DNA of 64,000 nucleotides. Origin: Bacilli bacterium. GTDB lineage: Bacteria > Bacillota_I > Bacilli_A > RFN20 > CAG-826. The notes below the pieces were generated by a model. The model was given only the letters and a program-made list of their open reading frames with translations. It was not told the origin of the DNA and made no database searches. The position numbers and the translations under genes were made by a program. Every line of letters begins with the position of its first letter. Position 1 is the stretch's first letter. This document shows positions 245-56,256 of the stretch, piece after piece. The DNA lies in NCBI GenBank assembly GCA_031556235.1, contig JAVBTH010000001.1, forward strand, positions 140,982-204,981, in the 5' to 3' direction.

Positions 245-423
245 TAGCCAGTTATAGATGTTTTGATTTTTACTTTTCGTTCTATTTCAATGACAACATA
301 ATTGTCTTTTTCTTTTTTTATCTCAACTACATTTCCTTTTTTAAGAATTTCATTTACTGCAAACTCTAGTGCTTTATTAAGTGAATTATTAGAATAGTCA
401 TTACTATTCAACTTTGATTCCAT
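245..423 (-). CDS. Hypothetical 59-aa protein (MESKLNSNDYSNNSLNKALEFAVNEILKKGNVVEIKKEKDNYVVIEIERKVKIKTSITG), last gene of a 4-gene coupled operon
   Basis: Hand-translated ORF just below the 60-aa cutoff of the ORF track; GGGGTGA SD 10 nt upstream; its start lies 5 nt after the stop of the upstream gene. Confidence 0.45.
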
Positions 424-428
424 TTGTT

Positions 429-638
429 TTAATCACCCCTAGTCTCTAAACGAAATTCAATTTCGTAAATCAGATTACTTAAAGTTTCTGCACTTATTAC
501 AATTTCACCATTGAAATGTAAATCATAACATTTTGGTCTTGTAGTTCCGTAGTAACAAGTATTGATCCATGCATCATCACCATATAATTTTTTAGCTAAA
601 CGCAAAGCCTTTTTTTCGATATTACTTATTTCACCCAT
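429..638 (-). CDS. Hypothetical 69-aa protein (start trimmed to the internal Met MGEISN...)
   Basis: ORF 429..686; the internal ATG is preceded by AAAGGAGAA and sits 4 nt after the stop of the 643..870 gene. Confidence 0.55.
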   Translation of the reverse strand: MGEISNIEKKALRLAKKLYGDDAWINTCYYGTTRPKCYDLHFNGEIVISAETLSNLIYEIEFRLETRGD

Positions 639-642
639 AATG

Positions 643-870
643 CTATTCTCCTTTAAATGTACGAATACGAGCATTTTTATCTGCAATTTGATTAAATTTA
701 TTTAAAGCTTCTTCATATGTTTTTGCAAATAATTCTACTATTCCAAAATCAATACTTTCTTTGTCTAAACAAATAATCTTTGTAACTACTAAATAAGAAG
801 TTTTATCATCAATAATTGCCACATCTAATAATAACGAACAATTTAATACATCTCTATTTCCGTTTTTCAT
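643..870 (-). CDS. Hypothetical 75-aa protein
   Basis: ORF track; start 2 nt after the stop of the 873..1682 gene (translational coupling). Confidence 0.55.
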   Translation of the reverse strand: MKNGNRDVLNCSLLLDVAIIDDKTSYLVVTKIICLDKESIDFGIVELFAKTYEEALNKFNQIADKNARIRTFKGE

Positions 871-872
871 GA

Positions 873-1682
873 TTAGATTCCTATATATTTCAGAAAAATT
901 GTGTATTCTTCATTTGTTAATAAAGTCTTACAATATCTTTCTATTTCTTTCATTGTTTGTCCTAATAAAATACCATAAGAGAGTAAATTATCAGAATTTA
1001 ATGTATCAATATATTCACATGATTTAAAACTTTTATCATAATTTTCTTTACTAATTATTTTTTTAAGACATTCTAAGTTACTTGTAATTTGCTCAATCCT
1101 AAGTTTCAAATTTTTAAAAACTCTAAATTTTTCAAACATAAACAAATAAGCATCTTTTTCTTTTACATCAAACTCTTTGATAACAATAAAATTATCTCTT
1201 GAAATTTGCTTCGCACCTACACTTTCATCCAAGTGTGAATAAAACATTTTCCCATCAATAATTCCAAAATCTATGGCATCACTGCACCAAGAACCTTTAT
1301 CATGCCACTTAGTATGCTTAACTAAAGAAAATCTTACATTGTCAAGTAACTGATCTTCAAAACAATAATTTCCTAATAAATCTTTTATAGATAATGAAAC
1401 TCTTTTATATTTTTTTCCTTGCTCTCTATTTAAGTGCTTACTAGCAAAAATGTTGTGAAAATGAGTTTCTAGTAATTCTTCATATGTAAGAGTTTTGCTA
1501 TAACAATAAAATTCATAATAATTTTTATATTTTCTTGATTCACTAATAAAGCTATCACTAATGGTTACAGCGTAATCTGTAATGTTAGAAAGCAAGAAAG
1601 TATAAAAGGTTTGTCCTAAATATTCATTTTCTTTCTTTTCAACCAAATGCTTTTTGTGAATATAAATTGTAATCTCTGCCAT
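873..1682 (-). CDS. Hypothetical 269-aa protein, first gene of a 4-gene operon; no recognisable motif
   Basis: ORF track; perfect AGGAGGT SD upstream of the ATG. Confidence 0.65.
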   Translation of the reverse strand: MAEITIYIHKKHLVEKKENEYLGQTFYTFLLSNITDYAVTISDSFISESRKYKNYYEFYCYSKTLTYEELLETHFHNIFASKHLNREQGKKYKRVSLSIKDLLGNYCFEDQLLDNVRFSLVKHTKWHDKGSWCSDAIDFGIIDGKMFYSHLDESVGAKQISRDNFIVIKEFDVKEKDAYLFMFEKFRVFKNLKLRIEQITSNLECLKKIISKENYDKSFKSCEYIDTLNSDNLLSYGILLGQTMKEIERYCKTLLTNEEYTIFLKYIGI

Positions 1683-1998
1683 TTTACTTTACCTCCTAAA
1701 ATAAAAACGACCCACATTTCTGCGAGTCGCTTGTTTATTCACTATTTTTTCTAGTGTGCAATAATCAACTCGCACACTAATCATATATTAACAATATCGT
1801 AGCGTAAGAGATAATTTTCCATGAAACCGCTTTTATTTTTCTATAAATATCTGTTCAATATTTCTTGGCATTTAATAAACTTTTTAGCGTTTACTGGAAT
1901 CGTATTATTAGTCAGTGCTAATTTGGAAAGAGAATCTTGCAAAATTGACTTTTACCCATTATTACATTATAATCTTTTCATAGTTTTGGAGGTAATTT

Positions 1999-37414: not shown

Positions 37415-37498
<84 letters not shown>

Positions 37499-37958
37499 AT
37501 CGTAGACTATTATAGTAAATCTTCGTAATGTATTCAAGATTTTTATAAAATATTATTTATAAAAGCATTACATGTAAATTGCAAATTATAGACACAACAC
37601 AAATATCAAATATAAATAAACCCTTTTTGTCATTAAAAAACTTTTTTCAATTTTTAAAACAATTTAAAACTCTTCTTCACTTTTACTATTATATAAGTAG
37701 TCATTTTTGATTTTTTAGAATTTTACATATGAATGAAGGGGGATTTTTATTAAAGAAGAGAATTATAAATCAAAGTTATTTAAACCGATAGATGATAAAA
37801 TCTCTCAAACACAGCCTGAAGAAGATATAAATAGTAACTCTAATTCTAAAGATTCAATTAAAATCAAACATAAATTAAACTTTAAAGAACTAAAAGAATT
37901 ATCTTTTGAAAATCAATTAGATAAATATGAGAATGGAGAAATTCATGAAACGGCAATT

Positions 37959-38333
37959 TTGTATGTGGGAAATGTCCCTAACATTTATAAACTATTTGGT
38001 TCTCAAGGAGAATCAATTTTAATTTCTAAGGCCATAATCGATAAAATTGTAAGTCAGCACGATATTTCAGTTAAGGAATTAAAACTAATACCAAAAAGAA
38101 TTAATGATCCAATATTTATTTTTAAAGGAAATTCTTCAAATTATAACTCAATTGTTTCAGTTATTGATATGGTCGACAATAATGGGAGACAAATTATAAT
38201 CCCTATCTATATGAATGAAGTTAGAGGAAAAAAACTAGTTAATCGTATAGCGAGTATTTATGGTAGAAATAACTTTCAAAACTACGTTCAAGAACAAGGT
38301 TTAAAAGGAAATTTATTATATAAAAAGCAATAA
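37959..38333 (+). CDS. Hypothetical protein or gene remnant: reading frame open from 37737 but no in-frame ATG, TTG start assigned at 37959
   Basis: ORF track (TTG start); see finding. Confidence 0.35.
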   Translation: MYVGNVPNIYKLFGSQGESILISKAIIDKIVSQHDISVKELKLIPKRINDPIFIFKGNSSNYNSIVSVIDMVDNNGRQIIIPIYMNEVRGKKLVNRIASIYGRNNFQNYVQEQGLKGNLLYKKQ

Positions 38334-50381: not shown

Positions 50382-51461
50382 TTATCTTTTTACTATTATC
50401 GATAACAGCTCTTTTTCAATCCATGTTCTAACATTATCTATTATTGGAAGAAAGGATCCATCTAAAGGAAAACGATATCCTTGACAAGCGCCTTCACAAT
50501 GGTCACCACCAGTTTTGCGATAGCAACCAAATCCTTTTAGAATTTTTTGCTGTAAGGTTCCTGGAAAACTTTCAATAATACTAGGGAAATTAATAATGTT
50601 ATTTGATTTGATAATAAAACATATTCCATTTATTGAAGATGAAAATGTAAAAATCTCTTTGCTTTTATAAGAATAGATAATCTTAATACGAAAATATTTT
50701 GATTCAACTCTTTGTGTTAATCCTGATTGAATAAACAACTTATCAGTTTGCATAACAAAATCTTTTAAATCTGTTGGTAAAGGATTAATGAAATCCTTAA
50801 AATCCATATCTATTTGATCATTGCTATCTATTAGTATTTTATAATCGCAACTTAGAAAATAGTCTTGATATCCGAAGGTTCTTAATTTGCATTGCGCGGT
50901 AGCCATTGCTTTCATCCCTACTAGCATCATAGGATTATCTGGATATGATATCTTCAAAAATTCTAATTTTTCAATATTTGGATTTTTTTCATCTAAATTA
51001 ATTCCTTCAAAGCAAAAGCCACAGTTCTTTAGGTGTCGAAATCCTTCAATTAATTTTGAAATGCTCATTTTTGTTTTTGAATTCAAATTTGCGTTTCCTA
51101 CTAAACAAAGCGACTCGAAATCTTTTAATAATAAAGATTTATTGACATCAGATAGTTCACCATAGAAACCAATATTCACTAATATGCTAACTAAGTTATT
51201 GAATAAAGGAAAATCCTTAGATAAGGTTGTATTATCTTCAAACCCATGAGTTTTTTTAGTAACCTCTTCTCCAACAGTTTTATTGTTTGAAATATAATCA
51301 CAGAATCTATACAGAAACTTTCTAAAACCAAAAACACCTTCTCTAATACTCTCTTCATTGGAAATATTTTTGAATATTGGTTTAATTGAATAATTTTCAA
51401 GGATAGAGGTTGGCATTATCCCTTTTATGAATAAAGCCATATCTTTAGTTTGTTTTGGCAT
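50382..51461 (-). CDS. Hypothetical protein (359 aa) with a Cys-rich C-terminal patch (GFGCYRKTGGDHCEGACQGY)
   Basis: ORF track. Confidence 0.5.
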   Translation of the reverse strand: MPKQTKDMALFIKGIMPTSILENYSIKPIFKNISNEESIREGVFGFRKFLYRFCDYISNNKTVGEEVTKKTHGFEDNTTLSKDFPLFNNLVSILVNIGFYGELSDVNKSLLLKDFESLCLVGNANLNSKTKMSISKLIEGFRHLKNCGFCFEGINLDEKNPNIEKLEFLKISYPDNPMMLVGMKAMATAQCKLRTFGYQDYFLSCDYKILIDSNDQIDMDFKDFINPLPTDLKDFVMQTDKLFIQSGLTQRVESKYFRIKIIYSYKSKEIFTFSSSINGICFIIKSNNIINFPSIIESFPGTLQQKILKGFGCYRKTGGDHCEGACQGYRFPLDGSFLPIIDNVRTWIEKELLSIIVKR

Positions 51462-51746
51462 AGTATTGTCCTCATCTCTTATTTCGTTGTATTACTTTTT
51501 AAGTTTTTATAATTATCCATCAACTTTTCTATTTTTTGCTTTCTTAAAAACGAAAACTCATTTTGTTTTCAAATTTATCGAGAACACGCTGCCATATTAC
51601 CTGTCTATGGCAAAGTAATCTAATAGTCTGCTGTGTGCCATGGACCAGTTAAATGATGAAATATCGCTCTCTGAAACTAGCAAAGCAACATATTTTTAGC
51701 AATTTTCATATCGAAAATTTTCATGATTTTATTGATTTTTTAATAA

Positions 51747-52277
51747 TTATTTTAACTTTTCCAAAATATCCTCTTCTATTTTTTTTATATAATCGGACAT
51801 ATATATCCAATTCGGTTTTGCATTTTCATCAACTGGCAGTTTTATTTTAATTGTTTTCATTTGTTTATATCTAAATTGTTTTTTAAAACTAAAATTCGAG
51901 CAAATAGTATTGTGTATAACCGTGCATAAAAATAATCCTACATTTTTTCCATAGTTACCTATTACTGGATAAACGTTATCATCACAGACAAAACTATAAT
52001 CGTGATAAAAACAATTTCCAAACATATCTATTGTCACGCAATTGCTATATATTCTATTTCTTTCGGGAGGTGTAATATATTCTGATATGCCATTATTAAA
52101 CTGACCTGCCGTTATTAAAGGAACATCTCCAATTTTTCTATCGCTTTTCTTTAACCTAGCACCATGTTCACAATTTGGAAACAAATCAGTAAAATCAAAA
52201 TCCATCCAATCAAATGTTTCTAAAATTGTTTCTTTTTTAATTTTGCAAATAAAATTATTAATAAACGGAAAATTCAT
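51747..52277 (-). CDS. hsdS: Half-size Type I restriction-modification specificity subunit (single target-recognition domain HsdS)
   Basis: GDVPLITAGQFNNGI TRD pattern and a C-terminal conserved region ...IKIKLP...; start overlaps the stop of the upstream MTase gene. Confidence 0.6.
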   Translation of the reverse strand: MNFPFINNFICKIKKETILETFDWMDFDFTDLFPNCEHGARLKKSDRKIGDVPLITAGQFNNGISEYITPPERNRIYSNCVTIDMFGNCFYHDYSFVCDDNVYPVIGNYGKNVGLFLCTVIHNTICSNFSFKKQFRYKQMKTIKIKLPVDENAKPNWIYMSDYIKKIEEDILEKLK

Positions 52278-54025
52278 TATTTTACCTCCTTATTTTTCAA
52301 AGCGAATATATACCAGTCATAGTCTTTAATCGCCTGAATTTCTTTTTTAATACTATCCATTTTTATTTTAGCTTCTTCATTTTCAAATAAAACTCTTTCG
52401 AGCACTGTCTTGTAAAATTTTTCTTCACTAAGCACATTTTTTTCAACTTCCACATCATATTCTAATGTTCTTGAAATTTGTTTTGTTTCATGATCTAAAT
52501 TATTTGTGATTATATTAGTCCAATATGAAAGAAGATTATCCTTCCCGTCATCAATCCAGCGATCATTTATATCTTGTTTTCCAGCATTCTTTACTGTTAC
52601 TAATTCATCTTCTTTTATCCAATACTTGATTATGTGTTTATCATTATGTGGAGCATCAGTTTGGAAGATAAATATTGACGTTGTAACTCCTGCTATACCT
52701 TGCCATGTTTTTTCAGGCATTTTAATGATTTTTAATAAAGTATGTTTATTAAAAATGGATTTGACTATTTTTTCTGATTTTGTACATAGCGTTCTATCTG
52801 GTAGAATAAAAGCACAAAGAGAATCTTTTGAAACATTATCTAAAACATTTTTAACAATTTTAATGCCTGTTTGGTTTTCAAAAGGTGGATTCATGAGTAC
52901 TTTATTAATTCCCAGAGACTTTATCCATTCACCTACCTTATTACTTGTTGAATCTCCTTGTATAATATTTGTCTTTCCATCTTTATGCATTAGCATATTT
53001 ACGCATGATAATACATACAATTCTCTTGCCCATTCAATTCCGTAAAGACTATTTACAATTTCATTTTTTCTATCGGGTCTTTCTTTCAGCATTTTGCTCA
53101 TTGATTTAGTTAAAAAAGTACCAGACCCGCAAGCAGCATCCAAAATTCTGGAATTACTGTTTACACTTATAATTTTATACATTAAATCAGTCCAAATTTC
53201 AGGAGTAAATACTTGACCATGCTCTCTTTTCCCAGCATATCTTCTAAATTCATTAAAGAAAATTGCCATCGCATCTTTCCCATCCCATGAATATGAATTA
53301 ATCCATTCACTTATTTCATAAATATCATTATATATAGATTCTACACTTTTTTGTCCATCTTCATTCAAAGAGATTTTTTCAAATTCTTCAGACAGTAAAA
53401 ACAATTTACTATCCTTATGCATTGATCCGGTAGGGATTCTTTCCTTTATAATTTTAGCAATTGATTTTTTCATATCTTCAAAAGAAGTTGTTGGTACAGC
53501 TAAATCTTCATCTATTGCTATTCTAATACCTACTAGTGCCAATCCAGTAAATTTCATTCTAGATATTAAATCTGCGAGACCTAAACTATGTAATTTTTTA
53601 TTAATAGATTGAACTTTTAAATATATTGATTCTTTTGGAACAGGAACTTCAAATAATCCTTCATAATATGACATGGGTTTCAACAATTTTTCTGATGGAT
53701 GAGTTAAAGAAATGCATTCCTCTGTTTCAATATCATAAAGTATTCCAACTATTTTTCTTGTTTTCATTGCTTTTTCTAATTTTATGTAATTCTCTAATTG
53801 CTCTATATAAAATTCCAATTTTTTATTTTGTTTTTTTTCTATTAATACAGCAACACCATTATGGTAAAATCTCCTATCCAAAAACTTGTTTAACTTATCT
53901 CCTTCATTTTTTTCCAAAATTTTAGTTATTTGCTTTTTTGAAAAATACTTTTGGTATGAATATTCATTGTTTTCAATATTTGAAGTTAAAAATTCTTCAC
54001 CTATTATTTTTTCGAAATCTCTCAT
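52277..54025 (-). CDS. hsdM: N6-adenine DNA methyltransferase (HsdM-like, gamma-class)
   Basis: Motif X GQVFTPEIW, motif I ILDAACGSGTFL, motif IV NPPF. Confidence 0.8.
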   Translation of the reverse strand: MRDFEKIIGEEFLTSNIENNEYSYQKYFSKKQITKILEKNEGDKLNKFLDRRFYHNGVAVLIEKKQNKKLEFYIEQLENYIKLEKAMKTRKIVGILYDIETEECISLTHPSEKLLKPMSYYEGLFEVPVPKESIYLKVQSINKKLHSLGLADLISRMKFTGLALVGIRIAIDEDLAVPTTSFEDMKKSIAKIIKERIPTGSMHKDSKLFLLSEEFEKISLNEDGQKSVESIYNDIYEISEWINSYSWDGKDAMAIFFNEFRRYAGKREHGQVFTPEIWTDLMYKIISVNSNSRILDAACGSGTFLTKSMSKMLKERPDRKNEIVNSLYGIEWARELYVLSCVNMLMHKDGKTNIIQGDSTSNKVGEWIKSLGINKVLMNPPFENQTGIKIVKNVLDNVSKDSLCAFILPDRTLCTKSEKIVKSIFNKHTLLKIIKMPEKTWQGIAGVTTSIFIFQTDAPHNDKHIIKYWIKEDELVTVKNAGKQDINDRWIDDGKDNLLSYWTNIITNNLDHETKQISRTLEYDVEVEKNVLSEEKFYKTVLERVLFENEEAKIKMDSIKKEIQAIKDYDWYIFALKNKEVK

Positions 54026-54388
54026 AAATACTGCTCCTTAATGCATTTTATTATTTACATGCTGCTTTATATTATTTTATTTGCTTATTCAGAATAGGCA
54101 ATTATTTTATGCTGCCACTTCATAATACAGTTGCTATCAAATTGTTGAATACTGATTTTCTACAATAAACAGCTATGTGACAATACTTTTATCTACTGTA
54201 AAGCAATACGACTGTCTCAACGTGTGCGGAGTTATAGAAATTGCTTTAAAAAATATTGCTGAGACTATGCAAGAGATATAGCATTTAAGTAATTAATTGA
54301 ACTCAAAAATAAAAAATTACTATATAATAAAAAAAATCAACTTTGAGAAATTGATTCTTTTTGGTAAAATATTAATGGTGATTAGATT

Positions 54389-55009
54389 ATGATAACAGTA
54401 AGAAAAATACAAAATGTTATAAAAGAAAATGGCAGAATCTCGACTCTTGCAGATATTTATTCTACATATGAAAAATTATATCCAGAAGATTTAATTGGAA
54501 AGAAAGCTTGGACTTCTTTGATTAGAAATTTAATATATTTTCATGCCGAAGAATGTGATAAACATAACAATAAATATCCTATTCTTTTTTATTCAGTAAA
54601 TGGAAAGGGCTCTGGGGTTTGGGGGCTATGTGATGTTCCAAATAGCGAGGTTAATTTACCAAGTATATCTTCACTAAATGATATGGTATTTCCTGAAGGA
54701 GCATTGTATGAATATCGTCATATGAAAAAAGAAAGAAATAGCAAATTAATTCATGAAGCAAAAAAACGTTTTTTACAACAACATGGAAAAATATATTGTC
54801 AGATATGTGGTTTTAATTTTTATGAAAAATATGGAGTTATTGGCAAAGATTTTATTGAAGCTCATCACATAATTCCGATTTCAGATGTAGATGCTGAATA
54901 TGATGCAAAAGTAGAAGATATTATTTTAGTATGTTCAAATTGCCATAGCATGCTTCATATTAAGCGTCCTTGGCTTACTGCAGATGAATTGAAAAAATTA
55001 TTAAAATAG
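54389..55009 (+). CDS. HNH endonuclease with an N-terminal winged-helix-like domain
   Basis: CQICG...EAHHIIP...VCSNCHSMLH His-Me finger with two CxxC pairs. Confidence 0.75.
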   Translation: MITVRKIQNVIKENGRISTLADIYSTYEKLYPEDLIGKKAWTSLIRNLIYFHAEECDKHNNKYPILFYSVNGKGSGVWGLCDVPNSEVNLPSISSLNDMVFPEGALYEYRHMKKERNSKLIHEAKKRFLQQHGKIYCQICGFNFYEKYGVIGKDFIEAHHIIPISDVDAEYDAKVEDIILVCSNCHSMLHIKRPWLTADELKKLLK

Positions 55010-55025
55010 AAGCACTATCAAATAA

Positions 55026-55056
55026 AAAACGACTTCAGTAAATAGTCGTTTTAAAG
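55026..55056. terminator. Bidirectional terminator (aacgact/agtcgtt stem flanked by A/T runs)
   Basis: Between the convergent HNH gene and the 395-aa gene. Confidence 0.6.
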
Positions 55057-55068
55057 TTTATATGCTTT

Positions 55069-56256
55069 TTAATCGTAAATTCCTAAATTTAATCTTTTTT
55101 CTAATATTTCAAATATTTCTCTTGTGGAACTTAAGTATTTTGGCCTTGCATCCAAATACCTATTTACTCCTTCTTCATCCATGCTTTTAATTGTATTTGA
55201 TAAAAATGAGTGAACAACATTTTCTATTGATGAAAAAGTTAAATATAATTGATAAATACAATCTGCATGAAAAGCTCCTCTATTATAAGTCGCATGAACT
55301 GCAGACGAATGGATAACCTTACTAGCATCTTTATAAAAATTATAGCGATGACTCTGATTTGCTAACTTAGATAAGGTTTCTTTAAAATTTAAATTTCTAT
55401 TCTCATAATCTTTTATTCTTAAAATCCAACCTAAATTTATAAAAGCTTTTTTATTATTCATTTTATAATATTCCATCTCAGTTTTTAAGGATTCAGATAG
55501 TTCCTTATTCTCTTCATTATCATCATAGTCTAGTGGCAAGTATTTTAAATGATCAACATATGCTTTACTTAAAATATTATCATAATTATTTAATAAAATT
55601 ATAGTGCATTCTAATTCATGACAAGTTCTCCAAAGGCTATAAGCTTCACTATCATATCCATTTGATAGCAAGTCTGCAATTGCATTAATTGTACATAATG
55701 ATTTTACAAACAAATTAAGTAATGTGGTTATTTTTTCATCATTAGTTTTTAATTTCGGATAAATTTCCAAAATGCAATGATTAATAAACCTTGTATACAT
55801 TTTTAAATTTCCTATTTCAGGCGAATATTTATTAGTAAATGACAACGGATTTATCTGAAGATGCTCATTAAATATTAACTTTGCAGTAACTTCTTCAACT
55901 ATTTTATTTTGATAATTTATATCATCTTGTAGAGATGCTCTTGCACTGTCTTCTAGATGGGATGTTCTAAAATAATGTTCATATGCAATATATGGAATCA
56001 TGTCTTTGAATTGCATATATTCATGAAGAGGAACATTTAAATTTCTTTTTGCCATTTCTTGAAAATAAAAACCATTAACCATTCCTAAAATCTTTTTAAC
56101 AAAATTCTTCTTGATTTTATCCCTATTATTTATTTTGGACCAAATCGAATCAAATTCCATTTCCAAAAAAGATTGCATTTGCTTATTCATTAATTCAAGT
56201 GCTTGTTTTTGACTATTACTAAGCATAACTTTATTATTTATAGTTACAGAATTCAA
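55069..56256 (-). CDS. Hypothetical protein (395 aa from a TTG start with a GGGGTGA SD; alternative ATG at 56226)
   Basis: ORF track; predicted all-alpha; no motif recognised. Confidence 0.5.
   Translation of the reverse strand: MNSVTINNKVMLSNSQKQALELMNKQMQSFLEMEFDSIWSKINNRDKIKKNFVKKILGMVNGFYFQEMAKRNLNVPLHEYMQFKDMIPYIAYEHYFRTSHLEDSARASLQDDINYQNKIVEEVTAKLIFNEHLQINPLSFTNKYSPEIGNLKMYTRFINHCILEIYPKLKTNDEKITTLLNLFVKSLCTINAIADLLSNGYDSEAYSLWRTCHELECTIILLNNYDNILSKAYVDHLKYLPLDYDDNEENKELSESLKTEMEYYKMNNKKAFINLGWILRIKDYENRNLNFKETLSKLANQSHRYNFYKDASKVIHSSAVHATYNRGAFHADCIYQLYLTFSSIENVVHSFLSNTIKSMDEEGVNRYLDARPKYLSSTREIFEILEKRLNLGIYD

Follow-up and report, generated by a model that had tools for sequence, protein, structure and literature searches.

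A Four-Gene Operon Next to trpS in an Uncultured Bacilli Bacterium and the Kinship of Its Last Gene Product to Small Phage Proteins of an Undescribed Family

Introduction

In staphylococcal pathogenicity islands (SaPI/PICI satellites), capsid interference is carried out by operon I, a set of small, tightly packed genes whose products include relatives of helper-phage head-module proteins and whose promoter is repressible. Here, we describe a bacterial locus that may be compared with this operon and with several other systems. The locus lies at the left end of a 64,000-nucleotide stretch of DNA, hereafter the window, from a Bacilli bacterium (assembly GCA_031556235.1, contig JAVBTH010000001.1, positions 140,982 to 204,981 of the forward strand; all coordinates below are those of the window). 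It consists of four genes, named p269, p75, p69, and p59 for the lengths of their products, together with a leader and terminators, and we refer to the whole as the cassette. A second context of interest is that of the small open reading frames (ORFs) that, in Firmicutes phages, come after short minor head genes of the MuF (SPP1 gp7-like) type; it was described by Jamet et al. (2017; PMC5576092).

The cassette shares some features with each of the described systems and lacks others. Like SaPI/PICI operon I, it is made up of packed small genes that include a relative of a head-module protein. However, no terS, integrase, primase, or LexA box was seen, and the likeness is one of analogy only; homology to Cpm, Pti, and Ppi was neither searched for nor found. 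By sequence, the p59 protein is a homologue of small ORFs situated immediately behind short MuF-like genes in phages, but its gene ends an otherwise orphan operon with no MuF, portal, scaffold, or capsid gene nearby. In the manner of a phage moron, the cassette has its own leader and putative promoter region, a terminator, a GC content lower than that of its neighbours, and a lineage-specific presence; morons, however, are defined inside prophages, and no prophage is visible to the right of the cassette within the window. Finally, as in the type III toxin–antitoxin (TA) systems ToxIN and AbiQ, a terminator stands between the promoter and the first protein gene, and the DNA is AT-rich and foreign-looking. 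Unlike those systems, the cassette has neither a tandem-repeat antitoxin RNA nor ToxN/AbiQ homology, and it encodes four proteins rather than one.

The Four Genes Form One Operon

The four genes are genuine, closely spaced, and form one operon (Table 1). The gaps between them are 2, 4, and 5 nt (p269/p75, p75/p69, and p69/p59, respectively), in agreement with the tight 2–5-nt arrangement claimed in an earlier note on this DNA, and they support close coupling. The perfect Shine–Dalgarno (SD) sequence that the note ascribed to the first gene is present. The SD sequences of the other genes are AGGA for p75 (8 nt ahead of the ATG), AAGGAG for p69 (9 nt), and GGTGAT for p59 (8 nt), and all three sit within the 3′ end of the preceding gene. 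An alternative TTG start for p69 at position 686 would give a protein of 85 residues; the SD sequence belongs to the ATG.

Evidence for coding comes from several sources. The order GC1 > GC2 > GC3 holds in all four genes. A codon-usage log-odds score derived from 51 further genes of the window peaks in the annotated frame in the case of p269, p75, and p69; for p59 it is ambiguous, although p59 has homologues. An open run of at least 59 codons is found in 81% of shuffles of the region, so that frames of 59 to 75 codons are not rare by chance. It is therefore not the length of the ORFs that argues for the small genes but their gap-free tiling, their SD sites, their frame-specific codon usage and, for p59, its homologues. 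The last ORF, of 59 codons, which the note had added to the operon as a gene, is thus upheld by its SD sequence, the tiling, and its phage relatives. Conservation of the small ORFs as coding sequence, which the note had made one of its tests, was found for p59, but as a free-standing phage gene and not as part of a four-gene module. A further candidate explanation, that the four ORFs are pieces of one frameshifted gene, was rejected: each has its own SD sequence and ATG, and p59 corresponds to a full-length, independent phage protein. Database entries from an NCBI source, on a contig of 672,584 bp, carry the exact sequences of all four proteins, and each forms a singleton cluster at 90% identity.

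Table 1. Features of the cassette. Positions are those of the window.
Feature	Position	Strand	Description
p269 (gene 1)	873–1682	minus	269 aa; soluble; singleton
p75 (gene 2)	643–870	minus	75 aa; singleton
p69 (gene 3)	429–638	minus	69 aa from ATG at 638; singleton
p59 (gene 4)	244–423	minus	59 aa; by sequence, member of a family of small phage proteins, core motif ILK[KR]GN..E[LIV]KKE..K.VV.EIERKVK.K
SD sequence of p269	1691–1697	minus	AGGAGGT, 8 nt ahead of the ATG
Intrinsic-terminator-like hairpin	1705–1732, U-run to 1695	minus	in the 5′ leader, directly ahead of the first SD sequence
Candidate antiterminator	1760–1774 with 1721–1735	minus	80% complementary
Inverted repeat	1752–1759 and 1772–1779	minus	TAGTGTGC / GCACACTA, N12 spacer; exact, 8 bp
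Candidate extended −10 promoter	1785–1793	minus	TG-T-TAATAT; proposed from reading the sequence
Rho-independent-type terminator	196–213 and 220–237	minus	imperfect stem, then U-run UUUUUAUUUUAUU; closes the operon after p59

Two of the genes share a short repeat. A 36-nt direct repeat, 792–827 and 1238–1273, with 28 of 36 positions identical, lies in equal codon phase in the p75 and p269 genes and encodes LDVAIIDDKTSY versus IDFGIIDGKMFY. The motif IDFGI[IV][DE] is common to both proteins, in frame, and p75 holds a second copy of IDFGI. A match of this quality was reached in none of 100 mononucleotide shuffles and in one of 100 Markov shuffles, with a BLASTP E-value of only 0.08. Partial internal duplication could explain the repeat, as could a strand motif common to both.

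The p59 Protein Belongs to an Undescribed Phage Protein Family

Alignments place p59 in an undescribed family of small phage proteins that is otherwise found only in packaging and head modules. The first relative, met in a metagenome scan, is an ORF of 46 residues with 51% identity to p59; it is carried by a phage-like contig, with a MuF-like gene on one side and the genes for scaffold and major head on the other. Scans of IMG/VR with a growing alignment then gave 19 and subsequently 62 loci, with 36 distinct proteins, mostly of 45 to 55 residues. The family is found on more than 60 contigs of uncultivated phages, and the identity of p59 to small ORFs on the IMG/VR contigs is 47–66%. Residues 19–59 align with 23 family members at 26–59% identity, and the family core reads ..[IV].EI..ILK[KR]GN[TS][VA]E[LVI]K[KR]E.GKLVVVEI[EQ]RKVK.K. 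All 12 columns that are invariant in an alignment of 11 sequences are retained in p59, as are all four that are still invariant among 24 sequences. A single-sequence AlphaFold2 model of p59 has a helix at residues 8–28 and a hairpin at residues 32–47, with a predicted local distance difference test (pLDDT) score of 68, and a Foldseek search of the PDB with this model gave no match at E ≤ 0.001. In sequence and model, p59 thus fits the family pattern of a helix and then a beta-hairpin, with the reduced core ILK[KR]GN..E.K...VV.EI.RK.K. An impression that p59 might be a lookalike of YezD/DUF2292 was dropped, as Pfam did not confirm it.

The gene has a preferred but not a fixed place in phage genomes. 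The usual order is large terminase, portal, MuF-like gene, small gene, scaffold, and major head, and the p59-family gene comes right after the end of a short MuF-like minor head gene in 73 of 80 locus records. At exceptional loci, the small gene either separates large terminase from portal or immediately precedes the large terminase. In five IMG/VR contigs (L115, L117, L122, L158, and L159), the gene is not fixed behind MuF; at some of the exceptional loci it stands between a serine-recombinase-like gene and the large terminase, at others between large terminase and portal. The p59-family gene thus behaves as a mobile unit within the phage late operon. When divergent phages are compared, the small protein is 50–67% identical, versus 31–50% for the adjacent MuF-like protein. 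The family is nearly absent from GenBank phages, where it is represented by a single unannotated record, MT837048.1. A role of these ORFs as immunity genes for MuF toxins was considered and rejected, as the MuF proteins in question have no toxin domain. In the window, no homologue of a terminase, portal, MuF, scaffold, or capsid protein was found; the p59 gene follows that of the orphan p69.

The other three proteins, p269, p75, and p69, are singletons without relatives detectable by sequence comparison. No relative of any of them was found in a word search of 5.8 billion proteins or in IMG/VR, and tblastn gave nothing significant in GenBank phages and PLSDB plasmids. For p269, an exhaustive phmmer scan of 1.84 billion representatives found no relative, nor did searches of JGI metagenomes, GTDB genomes, and PDB sequences. 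The sole extra phmmer match to p269, P0006, is spurious, being a repetitive low-complexity protein of 1253 residues whose score is summed over 15 tandem repeats. An AlphaFold2 model of p269 made without an alignment is unusable (pLDDT 36). The possibility that p269 is a diverged MuF-like protein was discarded after comparison by hhalign with a MuF-like profile (probability 0.2%). Nor do the 80 phage locus records that hold the p59 family contain any lookalike of p269, p75, or p69 at E ≤ 1. Searches of Pfam, NCBIfam, PHROGs, and PADLOC with all four proteins returned sub-threshold noise only, in keeping with the note's remark that it could name no family for them. The four-gene order, whose conservation in other genomes the note had proposed to check, was found nowhere, three of the genes having no relatives at all.

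The Cassette Lies at a Conserved Junction

The host is an uncultured, low-GC bacterium of the Bacilli/Erysipelotrichales type. Its trpS, the gene for tryptophanyl-tRNA synthetase, is at most 79% identical to that of any GTDB representative, with the best matches in metagenome-assembled genomes from gut and rumen. The host and its relatives have in common the order trpS, HAD hydrolase, a variable segment, and phosphoglucomutase, and the similarity ends at about position 1941, immediately ahead of the trpS promoter. An ArsC/Spx-family gene of 134–180 codons, located some 100 bp upstream of trpS and divergent from it, is found in 25 of 27 relatives (loci L001–L053). Its start is 32–350 bp from trpS, and it is usually followed by a CYTH-domain gene; neither gene is present in the 64-kb window. 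None of the four cassette genes was found at the trpS loci of 80 relatives. Since the relatives' loci are without the cassette and the junction is conserved, the cassette was inserted there or replaced part of the junction. No convincing flanking direct repeats that could be insertion scars were found, and the 243 bp to the left of the cassette genes (1–243) have stops in all frames and are non-coding.

The composition of the cassette differs from that of its surroundings. Its genes, which stand near the AT-rich extreme of the window, have 24–30% GC and a GC3 of 0.09–0.19, and the adjoining core genes have 35–37% GC. Two of the cassette genes are the lowest in GC of the window, and the p59 gene has 26% GC. 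Also in the low-GC class of the window are, among others, the genes for type I restriction–modification subunits and for a DUF5677 protein, and a free-standing MuF_C fragment. Low GC thus accompanies accessory functions and genes related to conflict in this genome.

Several other features of the window may be mentioned. The trpS promoter is near consensus (TTGACT-17-TATAAT, 1945–1973) with a leader of only about 20 nt, and the promoter stretch 1941–1998 is the only upstream sequence common to the trpS relatives; no T-box was found upstream of trpS, even at a permissive Rfam threshold. To the left of the cassette, the minus strand at 48–110 resembles a tRNA and has a distinct T-arm, GTCAGTTCAAATCTGAC. 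With 19.1 bits, this stretch falls short of the Rfam tRNA gathering score of 29; it is not called by ARAGORN at default settings and matches no tRNA of the window or of the relatives. Possible origins are a decayed tRNA and an att (attachment site) remnant next to the cassette. About 50 kb from the cassette lies a low-GC block, 50,382–56,256, with an HsdS-like gene (51,747–52,277), an N6-methylase gene (52,277–54,025), and the DUF5677 gene (55,069–56,256), which is likely a defence island. An ORF of 124 codons at 37,959–38,333 encodes the phage MuF C-terminal domain (PF18819, E = 4e-19) and lies about 460 bp from tRNA-Leu(gag) (region 37,415–38,333). This stand-alone ORF has the appearance of a gene scrap, from a phage or a polymorphic toxin, next to a tRNA.

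The Leader Has Mutually Exclusive Predicted Structures

The region upstream of p269 contains an inverted repeat, a terminator-like hairpin, and a segment whose predicted pairing excludes both (Table 1). The repeat had been described in the note as a perfect 7-bp inverted repeat; it is exact, but the arms are 8 bp long. The repeat is unique in the window, and it is matched in none of 100 shuffles. Perfect 8-bp repeats as a class (at least four G/C per arm, spacing of 3–20 nt) have nine occurrences at seven distinct sites in the 64 kb, versus 2.5 expected. As RNA, the repeat forms a predicted 10-bp hairpin of −13.3 kcal/mol. The palindrome may be read as a DNA operator that overlaps the transcription start, or as the 5′ hairpin of a three-structure attenuator, with the role of anti-antiterminator.

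The other two elements were overlooked in the note. Between the inverted repeat and the first SD sequence is a canonical terminator-type hairpin of 12 bp with a GAAA loop (−16.3 kcal/mol), followed by UUAUUUU. Since there is no space for a promoter between this hairpin and the SD sequence, the operon transcript must read through it. The candidate antiterminator pairs a segment inside the first hairpin with the 5′ arm of the terminator. In a transcript that ends before the 3′ arm of the terminator, this pairing is the minimum-energy fold, at −17.6 versus −13.3 kcal/mol for the first hairpin alone. The 171-nt leader folds better than 200 of 200 shuffles (z = −3.96). It belongs to no Rfam family, the top match being IMES-4 with 24 bits against a gathering score of 48, and no direct repeats, hence no tandem-repeat RNA, were found in 1683–1950.

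The candidate extended −10 promoter would place the transcription start near 1778, where the first hairpin has its foot; TATGAT at 1780–1785 is another possible −10 element. The leader, including the first hairpin and the terminator, is covered by an ORF of 31 codons (1689–1784, minus strand) that stops within the AGGAGGTAA ribosome-binding site of the p269 gene. This ORF is without an SD sequence of its own, and its start would precede the proposed transcription start. At the other end of the operon, the terminator reported in the note is present at 196–237, but it is bidirectional in shape only, as no convergent gene is visible in 1–243.

Discussion

We propose that the segment between about 196 and about 1940 constitutes a transcription unit of its own, an accessory operon that was gained by horizontal transfer, stems at least in part from a phage, and is probably gated by its leader; we judge the chances of this proposal to be about even, and any role in phage interference is a guess. 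The cassette would have been acquired at the junction where an ArsC/Spx-family gene normally sits divergent to trpS, and its last gene, at a minimum, would be of phage origin. A weak promoter near 1785–1795 would drive the operon. With the terminator placed right before the first ribosome-binding site, the operon is probably OFF by default, and read-through would need either the pairing of 1760–1774 with 1721–1735 or the release of a repressor at the palindrome. Once transcribed, the four genes would be translated in a coupled fashion to give soluble cytoplasmic proteins. Our guess is that the cassette is a phage moron, or the leftover of a defective phage or satellite, which may be retained for interfering with incoming phages, and that p59 may act on the same packaging or head-assembly partner as its phage relatives. 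It is the kinship of p59, and nothing else, that points to interference.

A number of observations weigh against the proposal. Only p59, of the four proteins, has demonstrable phage ancestry, and its family has no match in Pfam, PHROG, or the PDB. The terminator and the mutually exclusive antiterminator are both predictions from the only copy of the leader that is known. The promoter is poorly defined, as a consensus scan of the minus strand from 1733 to 1950 found none that matches at 9 or more of 12 positions. No integrase, att repeat, or other mobile-element gene was seen within the window, of which only 243 bp are visible on the left. The right-hand neighbours (trpS, HAD hydrolase, rubrerythrin, and phosphoglucomutase) are housekeeping rather than defence genes. 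Finally, the genome as a whole has 32% GC and several ordinary-looking genes are nearly as AT-rich as the cassette, which makes composition alone weak evidence.

A serious rival, although on balance an unlikely one, is that the cassette is a decaying, functionless remnant of a mobile element, such as a defective prophage or satellite, whose reading frames are still open but are unexpressed or unselected. Three of the four genes are without relatives, p59 is parted from its usual MuF and scaffold neighbours, and there are other phage scraps in the genome, such as the MuF_C ORF by tRNA-Leu, all of which would suit a remnant; in addition, the terminator in the leader would keep the operon silent, and no strong promoter turned up. 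However, unselected ORFs in DNA of about 25% GC gain stop codons quickly, whereas here all four frames are intact, with correct SD spacing, junctions of 2–5 nt, and frame-specific codon usage, and the core of the p59 family has been kept despite the shift to 26% GC. A chromosomal function specific to the lineage that has nothing to do with phages, such as that of a stress or regulatory module in the slot of the Spx-family gene, appears very improbable. It would account for the position of the cassette, exactly that of the ArsC/Spx-family gene and in the same orientation, and for the structured leader. Yet none of the four proteins resembles ArsC/Spx, the Spx-family gene may lie just to the left of the window, and both the composition and the phage affinity of p59 indicate a foreign origin.

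The note had likened the arrangement to TA or abortive-infection (Abi)-like multi-component modules. In a module of this kind, p269 would be the effector, to be neutralised by at least one of the small proteins, which would also act at the palindrome as an autoregulator of transcription. We found no positive support for this suggestion and regard it as improbable, somewhat more so than a functionless remnant. The tight operon with a perfect palindrome at its promoter and the terminator between promoter and first gene, as in type III TA loci, do recall such modules, as do the foreign-looking composition, the lineage-specific insertion, and the fact that other low-GC genes of the window are defence genes. 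But no match of the four proteins to a toxin, antitoxin, or Abi family was obtained in PADLOC, Pfam, or NCBIfam (E ≤ 1, noise aside), the defence profiles of PADLOC-DB v2 giving zero families for all four. Type II TA systems have two genes, rarely three, with a small DNA-binding antitoxin; in the cassette there are four genes with the largest first, and a large gene followed by three small ones corresponds to no described TA type. No DNA-binding domain (helix-turn-helix, ribbon-helix-helix, or AbrB) was detected in the small proteins. As for a palindromic operator of the TA kind, a perfect 8-bp repeat is there, and as RNA it makes an equally good hairpin. Tandem RNA repeats are absent from the leader. 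Moreover, the module is conserved nowhere, and the relatives of p59, on more than 60 phage contigs without the other three genes, sit in phage structural modules and not in TA loci.

A more specific form of our proposal, that of an accessory operon of partly phage origin, is that the cassette is a new, lineage-specific phage-interference system. In such a system, a domesticated p59 would target or sense phage assembly, p269, p75, and p69 would provide the effector and its control, and the leader terminator would hold the operon off until infection. We consider this doubtful, and a little less probable still than a TA or Abi module.

Conclusions

The cassette would be an accessory element that came from outside, in part from a phage, into a thinly sampled lineage of gut Bacilli, and such cassettes are common. 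The conserved divergent junction of the Spx-family gene and trpS offers a clean example of an insertion site. For phage biology, the undescribed family of proteins of 45–55 residues has some value, as its conservation together with its shifting position marks its members as uncharacterised players in phage assembly or host takeover that are under functional constraint. Should the cassette act against phages by way of a co-opted head-module protein, it would be a new type of defence module.

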